From sequence record MN106245.1: a stretch of 64,000 nt of DNA. The stretch is one strand, 5' to 3'. The translations under genes were made by a program, and so were the position numbers. Positions within the stretch are counted from its first letter, which is position 1. Every line of letters starts with the position of its first letter. The notes under the pieces were generated by a model. It searched no databases. It was not told where the DNA came from and saw nothing but the letters and a program-made list of their open reading frames with translations. Below, in pieces: positions 3,889 through 8,006 of the stretch. Source of the DNA: Klebsiella phage EI.

Positions 3889-4208
3889 TCTACTTCCTCA
3901 ACATCAGCCCAGAATTCGTCAACAGTATACGTCTCATCGTCATCAGCAATAAAGAAGCCTTTAGATGAATCAATAGTATCTACAGCGTTATACTCGCTTG
4001 ATTCGGAAACACGAATCAGTTGTTGGCCGTTAGGCAGGACAAATTTCTCACCATCTTCAACATCTTTAAAAAATTTCATAATCACCTCATGTTTGTGTAG
4101 GAGTACTATACCACGTTCTTTTGAGTGTGTAAACTGGTAATCTAAATGCCCGAAAGGGTTCCCATTTCTGAGAACCCTTTCTTCTCGGCTCTGATGACTT
4201 GGATGCAC
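3885..4208 (-). CDS. hypothetical small protein (alternative start at 4079 gives 64 aa)
   Basis: ORF track; acidic C-terminus. Confidence 0.4.
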   Translation of the reverse strand: MHPSHQSREERVLRNGNPFGHLDYQFTHSKERGIVLLHKHEVIMKFFKDVEDGEKFVLPNGQQLIRVSESSEYNAVDTIDSSKGFFIADDDETYTVDEFWADVEEVE

Positions 4209-4263
4209 CCAGAGGTCATTCGCCAGCCTTACGTCTTCGAGTGCAATTCTAGGACGTCATTCT

Positions 4264-4437
4264 TTATTCTACGATGTAATCTTCAACAACATAAGTGCTG
4301 TAAGAATTCATCTTGGACATTTCGTCAGCGTATTCGTTTGCAGCTTCTTCAGATGCAAAGATTTTCCTAGGCAGAGAATACTCATTATACCCGTACTCGA
4401 CGTTCCAATTTTCTTCTACTACGACGTAAACTTTCAT
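4264..4437 (-). CDS. hypothetical 57-aa protein (MKVYVVVEENWNVEYGYNEYS..)
   Basis: my own translation of the minus strand; below the 60-aa cutoff of the ORF track. Confidence 0.3.
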   Translation of the reverse strand: MKVYVVVEENWNVEYGYNEYSLPRKIFASEEAANEYADEMSKMNSYSTYVVEDYIVE

Positions 4438-4453
4438 ATTTTCCTCATAAATT

Positions 4454-4530
4454 TGGTGCCGGTTGACGGAATCGAACCGCCGACCTTCTCATTACAAGTG
4501 AGTTGCTCTACCTACTGAGCTAAACCGGCA
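4454..4530 (-). tRNA. tRNA-Thr (anticodon UGU), CCA encoded
   Basis: cloverleaf folded by hand: GCCGGTT..TAGCTCAGTAGGTAGAGC..anticodon loop CTTGTAA..GGTTCGATTCC..AACCGGCACCA. Confidence 0.8.
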
Positions 4531-4628
4531 TAAGACGGAAATAAGGATTCGAACCTTATGTAGTTGCACAGACGTATCTGCCGTTGAATTCCTCACTAAG
4601 TTTAAGCAACTATTCCCAGGTCTTAATT
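4531..4628 (-). ncRNA. tRNA-like element with a perfect T-arm (TAAGGTTCGAATCCTTA) but an acceptor/anticodon I could not resolve; possible degenerate tRNA or small stable RNA
   Basis: GGTTCGAATCC T-loop on the minus strand; sits between tRNA-Leu and tRNA-Thr where T4 has Gly/Pro/Ser. Confidence 0.3.
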
Positions 4629-4713
4629 TGGTGCACCGAGAGGGATTCGAACCCTCAATCCTTGCGGCGTAGCATTTTAAGTGCTATGTGTATACCAGTT
4701 CCACCATCGATGC
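4629..4713 (-). tRNA. tRNA-Leu (anticodon UAA), class II with long variable arm, CCA encoded
   Basis: GCATCGA acceptor pairs with TCGGTGC; anticodon loop CTTAAAA; T-loop GGTTCGAATCC. Confidence 0.8.
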
Positions 4714-4717
4714 GAAT

Positions 4718-4794
4718 TGGTCGAGACAGAAGGATTCGAACCTTCGACCTGCGGATTAGAAGTCCGCTGCTCTATCCAGCTGAGCTATGTCCCG
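4718..4794 (-). tRNA. tRNA-Arg (anticodon UCU), CCA encoded
   Basis: D-arm TAGCTCAGCTGGATAGAGC; anticodon stem GCGGA/TCCGC with loop CTTCTAA; GGTTCGAATCC. Confidence 0.85.
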
Positions 4795-4797
4795 AGA

Positions 4798-4925
4798 ATG
4801 TTCAGACAGGACTTGAACCTGTACGCTTAGGTCTGTTGCACCGGTTTCCGCCTTACTCACCTGGGTACCAACCAGGGTTTCAAACAAGCTATTCCGGTCG
4901 TGTCTACCGATTTCACCACTGAACA
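4798..4925 (-). ncRNA. ~128-nt tRNA-like stable RNA: perfect 7-bp acceptor stem (TGTTCAG/CTGAACA), Leu-type D-arm (GTGAAATCGGTAGACAC) and T-arm (ACAGGTTCAAGTCCTGT) with ~50 nt inserted in the anticodon region; analogous to T4 species 1/2 (rnaC/rnaD) RNAs
   Basis: hand-folded; location next to tRNA-Arg matches where T4 rnaC/rnaD lie. Confidence 0.5.
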
Positions 4926-4935
4926 TTTAATAAGT

Positions 4936-5172
4936 TTATTTAGTATACTCTATAAAAGCTAAAGCAAAATGTGGATCTACCTTAACAATTTTATGAGATA
5001 CCTTGAATCGATACGAATAAGAATCTACACCAATCCCATGACCTGTTTTGCCAGTTACTTTACCAACACGCATTTCACCATCTTGGCCCATACCAGAGGT
5101 TTTTACACCAAATAAGATATAATCGCCTTCAAAAACTGGAACACCATGTCGGTCTTTCATTAATTCTATCAT
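4936..5172 (-). CDS. hypothetical small protein
   Basis: ORF track. Confidence 0.4.
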   Translation of the reverse strand: MIELMKDRHGVPVFEGDYILFGVKTSGMGQDGEMRVGKVTGKTGHGIGVDSYSYRFKVSHKIVKVDPHFALAFIEYTK

Positions 5173-5621
5173 TTCGAAGCCTTAAGCATTTCACGTACTC
5201 GATAAAGATTGCTGCAGAACTCTTGTTCGGTCAGAACAGTTTCGTTCTTTTTAGACCGTCCCATAGAGTGAGTTAACGTAGCGTTCTGTGTGGCCAGGAT
5301 AGCTCTCTTGAATCCTTCATTAGTGGCCAATTGATTATATGCCCTTTCAATAAGAAGCGTATAGGCGTCACTCTGGCGTTGCATAGGGACGCCTTTCCAG
5401 TACAGAGTTTGCGTACGGAACCATTTCTTCTTTTTACCTTTGAACTTAGCTGCTTTACCAACTAAAGTGCAAACGTGTGCAGCCATTTCAGGAGAGCTGA
5501 ACTTCAACGACTGTAAGAAGCCTTCCATTGAAGCACATTTAACGCCGTCTATTTCAAAAGCATGCGGAGCAAAGTTGCTTAAAGCGCAACTAGGGTAACT
5601 TGACCCTGAGCCAATGTCCAT
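5169..5621 (-). CDS. NADAR (YbiA/DUF1768-like) domain protein; likely start at the internal Met MDIGSGSS
   Basis: motifs YPSCALSNFAPHAF.IDGVKCASMEGFLQSLKF fit the NADAR signature (LSNF..F..DG....S.EH.YQA.KF). Confidence 0.55.
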   Translation of the reverse strand: MDIGSGSSYPSCALSNFAPHAFEIDGVKCASMEGFLQSLKFSSPEMAAHVCTLVGKAAKFKGKKKKWFRTQTLYWKGVPMQRQSDAYTLLIERAYNQLATNEGFKRAILATQNATLTHSMGRSKKNETVLTEQEFCSNLYRVREMLKASK

Positions 5622-5884
5622 TAGATATCCTCTACGTGAATCATGATTGAGCGTCGACGAACAACGCATCCTTTAAGTTCTTCAGCAGCTTCAATTAGTA
5701 CACGGCCCGACGGAAGAATAAGCCCGTCAATTCGCTGTTGGGCCCGTGCTATATCCGTAAAACCATCTGCTTCAAGGAGCCCTGTGAATTCCCATCCTTC
5801 CCAGCATTCGTTATTAACGAATGAAGCATATGAGCCGAATTCTGGATTAAAAATTACGTAATCTTGTTGCATCTGTTGTTCCAA
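5621..5884 (-). CDS. hypothetical small protein
   Basis: ORF track. Confidence 0.4.
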   Translation of the reverse strand: MEQQMQQDYVIFNPEFGSYASFVNNECWEGWEFTGLLEADGFTDIARAQQRIDGLILPSGRVLIEAAEELKGCVVRRRSIMIHVEDI

Positions 5885-6189
5885 ATTTTAGTTAGACCAG
5901 CATGCTCGAAGGCACGCATACAAGAAAGACCGACTTTACCGTGTTCTTCCCACTCGATGATTCTATCATTATCTCTGAAAGCAAGACCTTTGGCTGGTTC
6001 AGCGTAAGGCTTCAATTCTTCAGGAACTTCATCCATAGAATCATAGACCACAGTAACGCCACCTTTACAACCTGCGATACCTACACCGCATTTGCATTCT
6101 AACACACAACAACTATAACTGATATACGTAAAAGGGAATCTTTCGCCACAGAAAGGGCAGGGGAGTAAATCTTCATTTAGAATGGTCAT
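5854..6189 (-). CDS. Cys-rich zinc-finger protein with Lar-family-like CPFCG motif (possible restriction alleviation)
   Basis: N-terminal LLPCPFCGERF plus further Cys pairs (CCVLECKCG..GCKGG). Confidence 0.4.
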   Translation of the reverse strand: MTILNEDLLPCPFCGERFPFTYISYSCCVLECKCGVGIAGCKGGVTVVYDSMDEVPEELKPYAEPAKGLAFRDNDRIIEWEEHGKVGLSCMRAFEHAGLTKIWNNRCNKIT

Positions 6190-6211
6190 AATATTTTTCT
6201 CAGTAGTTGAT

Positions 6212-6359
6212 TGGACGGAACGCCTGGACTCGAACCAGGTTATAGAACAATTGGCGTTGCACTACATTTTTATGAGGCCAACAAATCGTTTCCTCAACAG
6301 GCACGTCGCCAAACGTGTCATCCTGGAGAAAAGTCAATGTGTCCTCGAACCGATTAATT
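6212..6359 (-). ncRNA. tRNA-like region ending in a canonical T-arm+CCA (CCTGGTTCGAGTCCAGG-CGTTCCG-T-CCA) but without a pairing 5' acceptor; possible tRNA pseudogene(s) or processed small RNA
   Basis: T-loop and CCA found by eye; 148 nt, roughly the length of two tRNAs. Confidence 0.3.
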
Positions 6360-6436
6360 TGGTGACCCCATCTGGACTTGAACCAGAAACCTACCAGTTA
6401 TGAGCCGGGTGCTCTAACCAATTGAGCTATAGGGCC
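6360..6436 (-). tRNA. tRNA-Ile2-like (anticodon CAU, probably lysidine-modified), CCA encoded
   Basis: GGCCCTATAGCTCAATTGGTTAGAGCA..loop CTCATAA..GGTTCAAGTCCAG..GGGGTCACCA; closely resembles E. coli tRNA-Ile(LAU) and T4 tRNA-Ile. Confidence 0.75.
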
Positions 6437-6879
6437 AAAAGCTCTGTGCGATATTCTGCCAGAGCGTCATTATCCGGGTCTAAAGAGTACAAACAAGTAG
6501 GTTATTGTAGAACACAGCGTACTGTGGGAACAGCGCCTTCGGTCCCGGCATTTACTTACGGACCTCTAACTCATCTCTTTAGACTGCCATGTAATTATCT
6601 TTCGTAGGGATACGAATCTCTCAAGCTTTCCGGAAAGCTGAATAAGAGTTAATGGCTCTCATATACCCGTGCACAGATATAATCTTTGTTAACACATTAA
6701 CTGAATCGCTATACCTCGAAAGATAACTAGTACCTTCCTGCGCCGATTCAAGCTGTGATATACCTGGTTTCAATGAGGGACCTGTATAACAGGGAACGTC
6801 AGTTCGACGACTTGCGAGTGCGCATCCATCTGGGCTAGGCCTCAACAAGGTCATTACCAGTTTGGTCTCGCTTCTTATT
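6437..6879 (-). ncRNA. ~440-nt non-coding, highly structured block between two tRNAs (GNRA/UUCG-type hairpins; 16-bp perfect palindrome AGCTTTCCGGAAAGCT at 6624-6639); function unknown
   Basis: no convincing ORF (the two ORFs 6422-6607 and 6621-6956 overlap on opposite strands and lack starts/RBS); many short stem-loops; flanked by tRNAs on the same strand. Confidence 0.35.
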
Positions 6880-6962
6880 TGGCGGTTAGTGCAGGTATCG
6901 AACCTGCCTTGTCCTAAGACACGGATTAACAGTCCGTCGCTTCCCCTCTCAGCCAACTAACC
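6880..6962 (-). tRNA. class-II-shaped tRNA with anticodon GUU (Asn-type anticodon but a 13-nt variable arm), CCA encoded
   Basis: perfect acceptor GGTTAGT/ACTAACC; anticodon stem ACGGA/TCCGT with loop CTGTTAA; variable hairpin GTCTTAGGAC; T-arm GCAGGTTCGATACCTGC; G-CCA. Confidence 0.6.
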
Positions 6963-6969
6963 TAAATTA

Positions 6970-7042
6970 CTGGGATAACAGGACTCGAACCTGTGCATAC
7001 CGGAATCAAAATCCGGGGCCTTACCAACTTGGCTATATCCCA
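6970..7042 (-). tRNA. tRNA-Gln (anticodon UUG)
   Basis: TGGGATA/TATCCCA acceptor; loop TTTTGAT; GGTTCGAGTCC; starts with U like T4 tRNA-Gln; no CCA encoded. Confidence 0.8.
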
Positions 7043-7047
7043 TTTAA

Positions 7048-7125
7048 TGGAGGCGGAGGCAGGACTCGAACCTGCGCGTGTCGGGATATGAGCCCAACAT
7101 TCTGACCATCTGAAGTTACTCCGCA
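7048..7125 (-). tRNA. tRNA-Met (anticodon CAU) with initiator-like features, CCA encoded
   Basis: anticodon stem ends in three G-C pairs (TTGGG/CCCGA) next to loop CTCATAT, and the 1:72 position is mismatched (U:C); T-arm GCAGGTTCGAGTCCTGC. Confidence 0.65.
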
Positions 7126-7303
7126 TCTATTTCAAAAGCTCTCCACCCATCATGAGGGCTTCACTCGAATAATCCAGGAAGGCTGTACACTTCCCACCAA
7201 ATTATCGTGTCAAGAACTTTCTGAATAGAGACCTCACCATGTTTTTAGAGCTTAAGCCACAGGCTTCTCTTGAGGTCATTTTGAGACTGCTGTCTCCATG
7301 TAG

Positions 7304-7332
7304 TAATAATATCACTTAAAACTTAAAGCATA
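7304..7332 (-). promoter_or_regulatory. candidate T4 middle-type promoter (MotA box ATGCTTTAA, ~12-nt spacer, -10 TATTAT) reading into the tRNA cluster
   Basis: motif spotted by eye on the minus strand, upstream of tRNA-Met. Confidence 0.25.
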
Positions 7333-7629
7333 TTACCGGCTGATCATAATATAATCATGTTCAATGCAACCAGCCATCTGTTCATTCTTGAAAATATCAT
7401 ACTCAACTGGAGCATTATCTTCCATAACATAGAAAGTTAAGTTCACACTGTTATAATGATATTTATCATCAACCAGCTGGACCTTTGTGCTCGAACGGCC
7501 GATAGAAATCTTTTTGACTTCATGAAACGATTCAGCACCAAATGGAGCCACAGCAATCAGATTATGAGCCAGTTCAGAATCGTGACTATAGCCGTTATCA
7601 GGATGAGTTACTTTAGCGAATACTTTCAT
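7333..7629 (-). CDS. hypothetical protein
   Basis: ORF track. Confidence 0.45.
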   Translation of the reverse strand: MKVFAKVTHPDNGYSHDSELAHNLIAVAPFGAESFHEVKKISIGRSSTKVQLVDDKYHYNSVNLTFYVMEDNAPVEYDIFKNEQMAGCIEHDYIMISR

Positions 7630-8006
7630 TAACGATAACCACTCTCTACAATTGTATGAGTATTAAGGTTGGCAATATGCCACCAGTCAAAACGACCATT
7701 AAACTGCTTTTTCATAAGGTCTCGCAGTTCATCGATGTTCTGAGATTTAGCTCGCAGGTCATGGTAACCGCCTGATGGGTAGTAATCAGACCCAGCAAAC
7801 AGGGCAAAGTTATTACCAGTGTTCATAGAACAGCCAGAAGCATCTACCAAGTTACCATACTGGTCTGTGATTTCGATAAACGAATAACTCACATCACGAG
7901 CATATTCTACAGCATCTTGGTATGTTTCAAAAGAACCACACATGATACGACAATTCTGACGAGTATGAGGGTTCGCTTCAAAATCACCGTACAGCTTATA
8001 AGTCAT
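7629..8006 (-). CDS. hypothetical protein
   Basis: ORF track; ATGA-type overlap with neighbour. Confidence 0.45.
   Translation of the reverse strand: MTYKLYGDFEANPHTRQNCRIMCGSFETYQDAVEYARDVSYSFIEITDQYGNLVDASGCSMNTGNNFALFAGSDYYPSGGYHDLRAKSQNIDELRDLMKKQFNGRFDWWHIANLNTHTIVESGYR

Follow-up and report, generated by a model that had tools for sequence, protein, structure and literature searches.

The closest described system is the tRNA operon of bacteriophage T4, which encodes eight tRNAs (Arg, Ile, Thr, Ser, Pro, Gly, Leu and Gln) and two stable RNAs, RNA C and RNA D (rnaC and rnaD), whose roles are unknown (PMC3014915, PMC9697503). A tRNA for methionine or for initiation is absent from the annotated T4 set, as an earlier note on the DNA analysed here had also stated. 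The region 4454-7125 of Klebsiella phage EI (MN106245.1; positions are those of the window, the whole stretch of 64,000 nucleotides (nt) that was analysed) is a T4-type operon of tRNAs and stable RNAs from a Marfavirus-like Klebsiella phage, and all of its RNA genes are encoded on the minus strand. Across 4400-7200 it shares 92-96% identity with T4-like Klebsiella phages of the genus Marfavirus (R3_1, Kpn BM7, Marfa, F48 and Potts1), and partial matches were found in 567 phage records. The genomic setting is the same as in T4, the Thr, Gln, Ile(CAU) and Leu tRNAs are orthologous and both stable RNAs are shared; unlike the T4 operon, this one holds a Met-like tRNA and a tRNA-Asn, is without tRNAs for Gly, Pro and Ser, and has a different gene order. 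The tRNA genes of the operon are known already and form part of the routine annotation of hundreds of phage genomes. Gene calls, homology, covariation and the conservation of signature positions directly support a joint reading, given a probability of about 0.6, in which this T4-type RNA operon carries a phage-specific lineage of initiator-like tRNA at 7048-7125 and in which the elements that had appeared to lack an acceptor stem are conserved non-coding RNAs.

The gene at 7048-7125 (tRNA-Met(CAU), minus strand; called by ARAGORN and by Rfam at 39.8 bits; family 'a' together with its homologues) shares with the bacterial initiator tRNA (tRNAfMet) of E. coli (metZ/W/V/Y) the CAU anticodon, an unpaired 1:72, the pairs G2:C71, C3:G70, G4:C69 and G5:C68, the GGG/CCC pairs at 29-31:39-41 and the whole 39-43 strand. 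In the ARAGORN call the paired 1:72 of an elongator type is absent and a U1.C72 mismatch is seen instead, followed by G2C3G4G5; the anticodon loop, CUCAUAU, has seven nt with the CAU anticodon and U38, and the 3' end consists of U73 and an encoded CCA. Nine homologues from Marfavirus, Jiaodavirus, Moonvirus, Kagamiyamavirus and Kanagawavirus were aligned; the copies in Karamvirus (PG7) and Winklervirus (X20) are identical to that of Potts1. In this alignment every cell is paired at 20 positions of the cloverleaf, which comprise all of its pairs except 1:72; compensatory changes are seen at eight of the 20, and the CAU anticodon is invariant. The pairs 2:71 to 7:66 are thus 100% paired, while 1:72 is unpaired in nine of nine copies (U.C, or A.C in EcS1). 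G29-C41, G30-C40 and G31-C39 do not vary in any copy, and positions 2-5 and 39-43 are those of E. coli tRNAfMet, with G2:C71 and C3:G70 invariant. Because they are conserved in nine aligned homologues, the 1:72 mismatch and the three G-C pairs closing the anticodon stem are real and kept by selection, and in naming these two hallmarks the earlier note was right.

It is conceivable that the gene encodes an ordinary elongator tRNA-Met, or is a decaying pseudogene, and that its initiator-like features are accidental, given that GenBank annotates it simply as tRNA-Met (in one record as tRNA-OTHER) and that its Rfam score is low. This is disfavoured as highly improbable for several reasons: first, 1:72 is unpaired in every copy, whereas compensatory changes have preserved the six pairs next to it; second, the GGG/CCC pairs are invariant; third, when aligned with E. 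coli metZ, metT and ileX, the tRNA is closer to tRNAfMet (60-65% identity) than to elongator Met (44-52%). Furthermore, the gene is conserved in 263 phage records: the F48 copy is 100% identical, Jiaodavirus copies reach about 96%, and those of Karamvirus, Winklervirus and Erwinia phages stand at about 81%. The initiator-like reading is supported at the level of sequence, and the tRNA would belong to a lineage that either descends from the bacterial initiator tRNA or has come to resemble it by convergence.

Its distribution points to phages. A blastn search of 5,426 E. coli genomes with 7048-7125 gave no match, and when bacterial genomes were scanned with the anticodon arm of the family (GGGYTCATATCCCNNNACG), 0 of 120 sampled among the matches listed lay in a tRNA. 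In viral contigs, the anticodon-arm matches that ARAGORN called as tRNA-Met were all on T4-like contigs of 165-175 kilobases (kb), except for one on a cut contig of 102 kb. Among the matches listed, this outcome suggests rather than proves phage specificity, and it suggests a lineage confined to T4-like phages. Initiator anticodon arms are also borne by other viruses. A scan of viral contigs with TNGGGCTCATANCCCGA returned mostly unrelated contigs and serves as background only, for which positions 1, 11 and 38 of 102 tRNAs were used; A11 is present in 79 of these, A38 in 89 and U38 in 12, and 22 lie in loci of six or more tRNAs. These other viral initiators, some of them in tRNA arrays, resemble family 'a' in being virus-borne and in having the initiator anticodon arm, but they are mostly near-copies of bacterial tRNAfMet that keep A11 and A38, whereas the T4-like family has neither.

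Several points weigh against the reading as an initiator. The pairs A11:U24 and G12:C23 have been reported in 100% of bacterial tRNAfMet genes, of which they were called 'complete discriminators' (Silva et al., PMC1635315), and 7048-7125 has neither; R11:Y24 has moreover been cited as a formyltransferase element (PMC9976931). In family 'a' the D stem begins with A10-U25, for which two Kanagawaviruses have C-G in a compensatory change; one bulged nucleotide, C or A, is followed by U-A, U-A and C-G, and the stem closes a canonical D loop of 8 nt; the bulged nucleotide is itself a difference from E. coli tRNAfMet. The discriminator of 7048-7125 is U73 and not A73 as in E. coli tRNAfMet (U73 in eight of the nine copies, A in Moon), U1.C72 (A1.C72 in EcS1) replaces C1.A72, U38 replaces A38, and overall identity to E. 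coli tRNAfMet is only 60-65%. The Rfam tRNA score, 39.8 bits, is the lowest in the operon. A survey reports that enteric phages generally avoid encoding tRNA-fMet (PMC10264068), so that an initiator role for this tRNA would be an exception. Two further points concern the operon as a whole. A scan upstream of 7125 gave no convincing sigma-70 promoter, and on the host side the codon argument for the elongator tRNAs, set out below, relies on the generally high G+C content of Klebsiella genomes. Given the lack of A11:U24, G12:C23 and A73, the tRNA is filed as an initiator-like variant and not as a canonical tRNAfMet: of the earlier description as an initiator tRNA, the acceptor-end and anticodon-stem hallmarks stand and the canonical identity does not. 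It appears to be a divergent, phage-specific variant without one of the features that define bacterial initiators.

In bacteria the CAU anticodon alone is enough for MetRS, and the 1-72 mismatch is the main signal for formyltransferase (PMC9976931), which makes methionylation, formylation, exclusion from EF-Tu and use in the P site the most likely course for this tRNA, although each of these steps is inferred. Host MetRS would charge it via the CAU anticodon, host formyltransferase would formylate it via the unpaired 1:72 together with G2:C71 and C3:G70, and the same mismatch would exclude EF-Tu; the three G-C pairs would then admit it to the ribosomal P site, and the gene would thereby supply initiator tRNA during infection. 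It is also to be considered that the RNA acts outside translation. By imitating the initiator it would then draw off a host protein, for instance formyltransferase, IF2, IF3 or a toxin directed at tRNAs, and so serve as a decoy or regulator. The abnormal D stem, the absence of A11:U24, the U73 in place of A73 and the presence in the same operon of at least three non-decoding tRNA mimics (elements A and B and the RNA C homologue, described below) would all suit such a role. This scenario is nevertheless distinctly unlikely, given that the cloverleaf, the CAU anticodon, the 7-nt loop with U33 and the encoded CCA are all strictly kept, and that preservation of the anticodon is not obviously needed by a decoy.

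If 7048-7125 does act as an initiator, the changes that set it apart from tRNAfMet may be of use to the phage. Phage tRNAs are now discussed as countermeasures to host defences that cleave tRNA, and it has been hypothesised that phage tRNAs with changes in the anticodon loop evade anticodon nucleases (PMC10264068). Enteric VapC toxins cleave tRNAfMet between A38 and C39 (PMC4105405). Position 38 is U in nine of nine copies of family 'a' and A in E. coli; given the position of the VapC cut and the invariance of U38, the base beside the cleaved bond is altered in the phage copies. U38, U73 and the bulged D stem may therefore make the tRNA a poor substrate for host factors that attack tRNAfMet. 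This raises the possibility that the gene encodes a nuclease-proof replacement initiator, whose U38 and remodelled D stem would escape VapC-type cleavage and allow phage translation to keep starting, and the recurrence of U38 in the 12 viral-contig tRNAs noted above is in keeping with it. It is a tentative proposal and rather improbable as it stands, since A38 contributes to the special geometry that the anticodon loop has in tRNAfMet (PMC2528185) and U38 could instead impair initiator function. PrrC, which had been put forward alongside VapC, targets tRNA-Lys and has no bearing on 7048-7125. Conserved in more than 250 phage genomes and altered exactly at the VapC cleavage site, the initiator-like tRNA nevertheless offers a concrete test of the countermeasure idea. 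Extended to the whole operon, the idea would be that T4-like phages of Klebsiella, Enterobacter, Serratia and Citrobacter carry a remodelled initiator which sustains initiation when nucleases destroy tRNAfMet, and that, in addition to RNA C and RNA D, at least four undescribed RNAs of the operon, tRNA mimics or otherwise structured, act on host tRNA-binding enzymes or defences; this wider proposal is also speculative and would have to be called unlikely at present. Nuclease resistance and any role of the non-tRNA RNAs are, like charging, formylation and use in initiation, the inferred part of the joint reading.

The second part of that reading concerns six elements that are not tRNAs. The earlier note had placed tRNA-like elements with no pairing acceptor at 4531-4628 and 6212-6359, in the slots of the T4 Gly, Pro and Ser tRNAs. 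It was correct that these three T4 tRNAs are not recognisable here, since the window has no tRNA for any of the three amino acids, and neither element is called by a tRNA model at default settings. The terminal stems, on the other hand, do pair and covary, and the elements are members of conserved RNA families. Stretches that had not been flagged also hold structured RNAs, one at 4797-4925 and three in tandem within 6476-6879. None of the six is a decayed tRNA; all are conserved structured RNAs, and an acceptor/T-arm module like that of a tRNA is retained in three of them (A, B and the RNA C homologue).

The element at 6212-6357 (minus strand) is the homologue of T4 RNA C (species 1 RNA), as identified by BLAST, alignment and covariation: it matches T4 rnaC directly (E=5e-9) and is connected to it by a chain through EcS1, Moon and PG7 at 79-85% identity. 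It folds as a four-way junction of an acceptor-like stem, a T arm and two long arms, and within the family the 5' end CGGUUCGAGGA and the 3' end AACCUGGUUCGAAUCCAGGCGUUCCGU are invariant. In the family alignment 98% of cells are paired, with compensatory changes at 19 pairs, against 40-51% for slid partners. Two conserved U.U mismatches within the acceptor-like stem explain why its pairing had been missed. The 3' end is a tRNA-like U-CCA in the Klebsiella Marfaviruses and UACA in T4 and the other genera, and in PG7 ARAGORN labels the 3' part of RNA C (L128 5174-5268) as a tRNA-Met of 95 nt. The homologue of T4 RNA D (species 2 RNA) lies at 6739-6879 (minus strand) and was identified by profile and alignment; an nhmmer profile built from six non-T4 phages matches the annotated T4 rnaD (L004 3155-3045) at E=6.4e-8, and in this phage the element bears an insertion of about 40 nt in its 5' hairpin. 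Element D2, described below, had been suspected to be the rnaD homologue from shared short motifs, but its profile is without a match in T4, and the true homologue is the element that directly follows tRNA-Asn. For some fifty years RNA C and RNA D have stood on record without a function. With homologues from several genera, structures backed by covariation and four further conserved RNA families next to them, there is now comparative material that bears on their function.

These four unannotated families, A, B, D1b and D2, are the least expected part of the locus. They were not detected in the 8-kb T4 locus, and literature searches found nothing on them. Element A (4534-4619, minus strand) is tRNA-sized and tRNA-like, with a terminal stem and a T arm, a second helix around an invariant 20-nt loop (UUAAACUUAGUGAGGAAUUC) and a UACG hairpin, and it has no anticodon arm. 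Homologues occur in Jiaodavirus, in S16-like phages, in Moonvirus and in two unrelated jumbo phages (Moabite and N1M2). MAFFT with RNAalifold misaligned the ends and missed the terminal stem; the helices were hence checked by hand, and compensatory changes are present in all four. Element B (4797-4925, minus strand) has a 7-base-pair (bp) acceptor stem, a D arm of class II type (GUGAAAUCGGUAGACAC) and a T arm, with a conserved branched arm of about 60 nt in place of an anticodon arm. Compensatory changes occur at 17 of its pairs, the proportion of paired cells is 91%, and it is found just upstream of Arg, Leu or Cys tRNAs in six genera. Neither A nor B received a default ARAGORN call or an RF00005 match, even at E<=5.

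A, B and the RNA C homologue might also be tRNA genes that have degenerated or contain introns. Only when the threshold is lowered and introns are permitted does ARAGORN call element B, as a tRNA-Ser(GGA) with a 42-nt intron, and relatives are annotated at its position as tRNA-Ser, tRNA-Phe pseudogene or tRNA-OTHER. This possibility is highly improbable, for three reasons: first, the inserted arm of B is itself conserved and covaries (helices 4 and 5); second, removal of the 'intron' leaves a loop, GCGGAAA, that is without U33; third, an anticodon arm is missing altogether from A and from the RNA C homologue. Moreover, the known tRNA introns of bacteria and phages are group I introns, which are far longer than 42 nt. 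Conserved non-coding RNAs therefore remain the preferred reading of these elements. In GenBank, element B appears as tRNA-Ser, tRNA-Phe pseudogene, tRNA-OTHER, tRNA-Thr or hypothetical protein, and several of the non-tRNA RNAs are overlaid with 'hypothetical protein' open reading frames (ORFs). For annotation, this means that several elements of the operon are mislabelled there, as tRNA-Ser, tRNA-Phe, tRNA-Met or hypothetical proteins.

The remaining two elements lie between the tRNA-Ile2 gene and the RNA D homologue. D2 (6476-6588, minus strand; nhmmer and covariation) has no T arm and was found in 11 loci from seven genera at E values of 1e-32 to 1e-37; of its cells 99% are paired, against 30-49% in slid controls, and 12 pairs show compensatory changes. 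A GAUGAG...GAAG motif raised the possibility of a hammerhead ribozyme, which was rejected as the C3/U4 core is missing and there is no Rfam hit. D1b (6592-6729, minus strand) has a long closing helix and is conserved by BLAST in Karamvirus and EcS1; RNAalifold predicts 50 pairs, 12 of them with compensatory changes, from only four sequences. None of the six non-tRNA RNAs matched an Rfam family at E<=5 across 4300-7400, where Rfam otherwise returned only tRNAs, antisense plastid models mirroring the tRNAs, and chance-level matches to YrlA and SNORD. With YrlA, a Y-RNA-like tRNA mimic of bacteria and phages, elements A, B and RNA C have in common that acceptor, T-arm and D-arm-like modules are kept without decoding; the match to RF02553 is, however, only at chance level (18.3 bits, E=2.3). 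The ends of YrlA RNA lie on the anticodon side, and those of A, B and RNA C form an acceptor-like stem.

The seven tRNAs of this cluster are the only ones that ARAGORN finds anywhere in the 64-kb window, and Rfam RF00005 places all seven above the gathering score. The six tRNAs named in the earlier note (Thr, Leu, Arg, Ile with CAU, Gln and Met with CAU) are all among these calls; a seventh, the 83-nt tRNA-Asn(GUU) at 6880-6962, had been overlooked. The cluster had also been described as larger than that of T4 and different in composition. The composition does differ and the span is longer, but with seven tRNAs against eight the cluster is larger in span only. In addition to those at 6880-6962 and 7048-7125, the tRNA genes, all on the minus strand and all called by both ARAGORN and Rfam, are Thr(UGU) at 4454-4529 (91% identity to T4 tRNA-Thr), Leu(UAA) at 4629-4713 (69% to T4 tRNA-Leu), Arg(UCU) at 4718-4794, Ile2 with the gene anticodon CAU at 6360-6436 (71% to T4 tRNA-Ile) and Gln(UUG), without an encoded CCA, at 6970-7042 (79% to T4 tRNA-Gln).

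The CAU tRNA at 6360-6436 appears from its sequence to be a tRNA-Ile2. It shows 80-82% identity to the tRNA-Ile(CAU) genes of E. coli and is matched in all 5,426 genomes, the best matches being annotated tRNA-Ile; identity is 79% to ileX against 66% to the elongator metT. The acceptor strand, GGCCCUA, holds C4:G69 and C5:G68, which are marks of tRNA-Ile(CAU), and the equivalent gene of phage Entb_45 is annotated tRNA-Ile. The closeness to E. coli tRNA-Ile that had been claimed for this gene is therefore borne out, by its identity to ileX and by these two pairs. Together with the Thr, Leu, Arg and Gln tRNAs, which read ACA, UUA, AGA and CAA, the Ile2 tRNA (AUA) would read A/U-ending codons that the phage often uses: within their synonymous sets, the ORFs of the window use UUA at 0.28, AGA at 0.20, AUA at 0.15, CAA at 0.54 and ACA at 0.25, at a G+C content of 41%. 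These fractions fit the classical view of the elongator tRNAs as a supplement for codons that a high-G+C host seldom uses.

The tRNA-Asn(GUU) at 6880-6962 has a class II body. It is 83 nt long, with a 3-bp D stem, a variable arm of 13 nt, G73 and an encoded CCA; its homologues are 83-85 nt long, and the stem of the variable arm covaries. A long variable arm with G73 has been described as the SerRS identity set (PMC5389517). Of the features considered for a serine-type class II tRNA, it carries G2:C71, C11:G24, G73 and a long variable arm of just 13 nt, together with the AsnRS elements GUU and G73. As in allo-tRNAs and the nev-tRNAs of nematodes, a long variable arm and G73 go together with an anticodon other than Ser, Leu or Tyr; unlike them, this tRNA has the normal 7/5 acceptor/T geometry, a short variable arm with a stem of 3-4 bp, and the AsnRS elements. 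Its identity to phage Ser, Tyr, Leu and Cys tRNAs is only 38-59%. This class II tRNA-Asn is widespread in enterobacterial phages, including T5-like phages and Phapecoctavirus, with matches in 521 records; among the loci compared, copies are present at L127 3926-4010, L128 3939-4023, L129 4292-4375, L139 1139-1223, L291 274-356 and L292 297-379. Other T4-like phages have a normal tRNA-Asn of 76 nt. A second class II body bearing an anticodon normal for a class I tRNA is the phage tRNA-Cys(GCA), of 85-87 nt with a long variable arm and U73, which is found in PG7 (L128 8758-8842) and EcS1 (L134 7379-7465).

The RNA operon is interrupted by four small ORFs on the minus strand (5854-6189, 5621-5884, 5169-5669 and 4936-5172), and the four ORFs of 4936-6189 are likewise annotated in Marfa, Potts1 and Biddle. 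The third, at 5169-5669, belongs to the gp30.3 family (PF08010, E=7.9e-55) and has the RNA C homologue on one side and element B on the other. About 200 nt of non-coding sequence (7126-7332, minus strand), in which the scan showed no sigma-70-like promoter, precede the first tRNA, and no terminator-like site was found within 4200-7700. The RNAs of the operon are probably processed out of long precursors.

Gene content and alleles also vary between close relatives. Potts1 (L001 4078-4154) and Biddle (L002 4044-4120) carry a 77-nt tRNA-Lys(UUU) in the slot of the 73-nt tRNA-Gln(UUG); the presence of Gln(UUG) in this window and in Marfa, and of Lys(UUU) in sister Marfaviruses, is a cassette swap and not a point change of the anticodon. 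The Met-like and Asn alleles of the window (6880-7125) are 100% identical to those of phage F48, and the Met-like allele shares about 96% identity with the Jiaodavirus copies but 82% with the copy of Marfa and Potts1. This pattern of allele identity suggests mosaic exchange inside the tRNA operon between genera.

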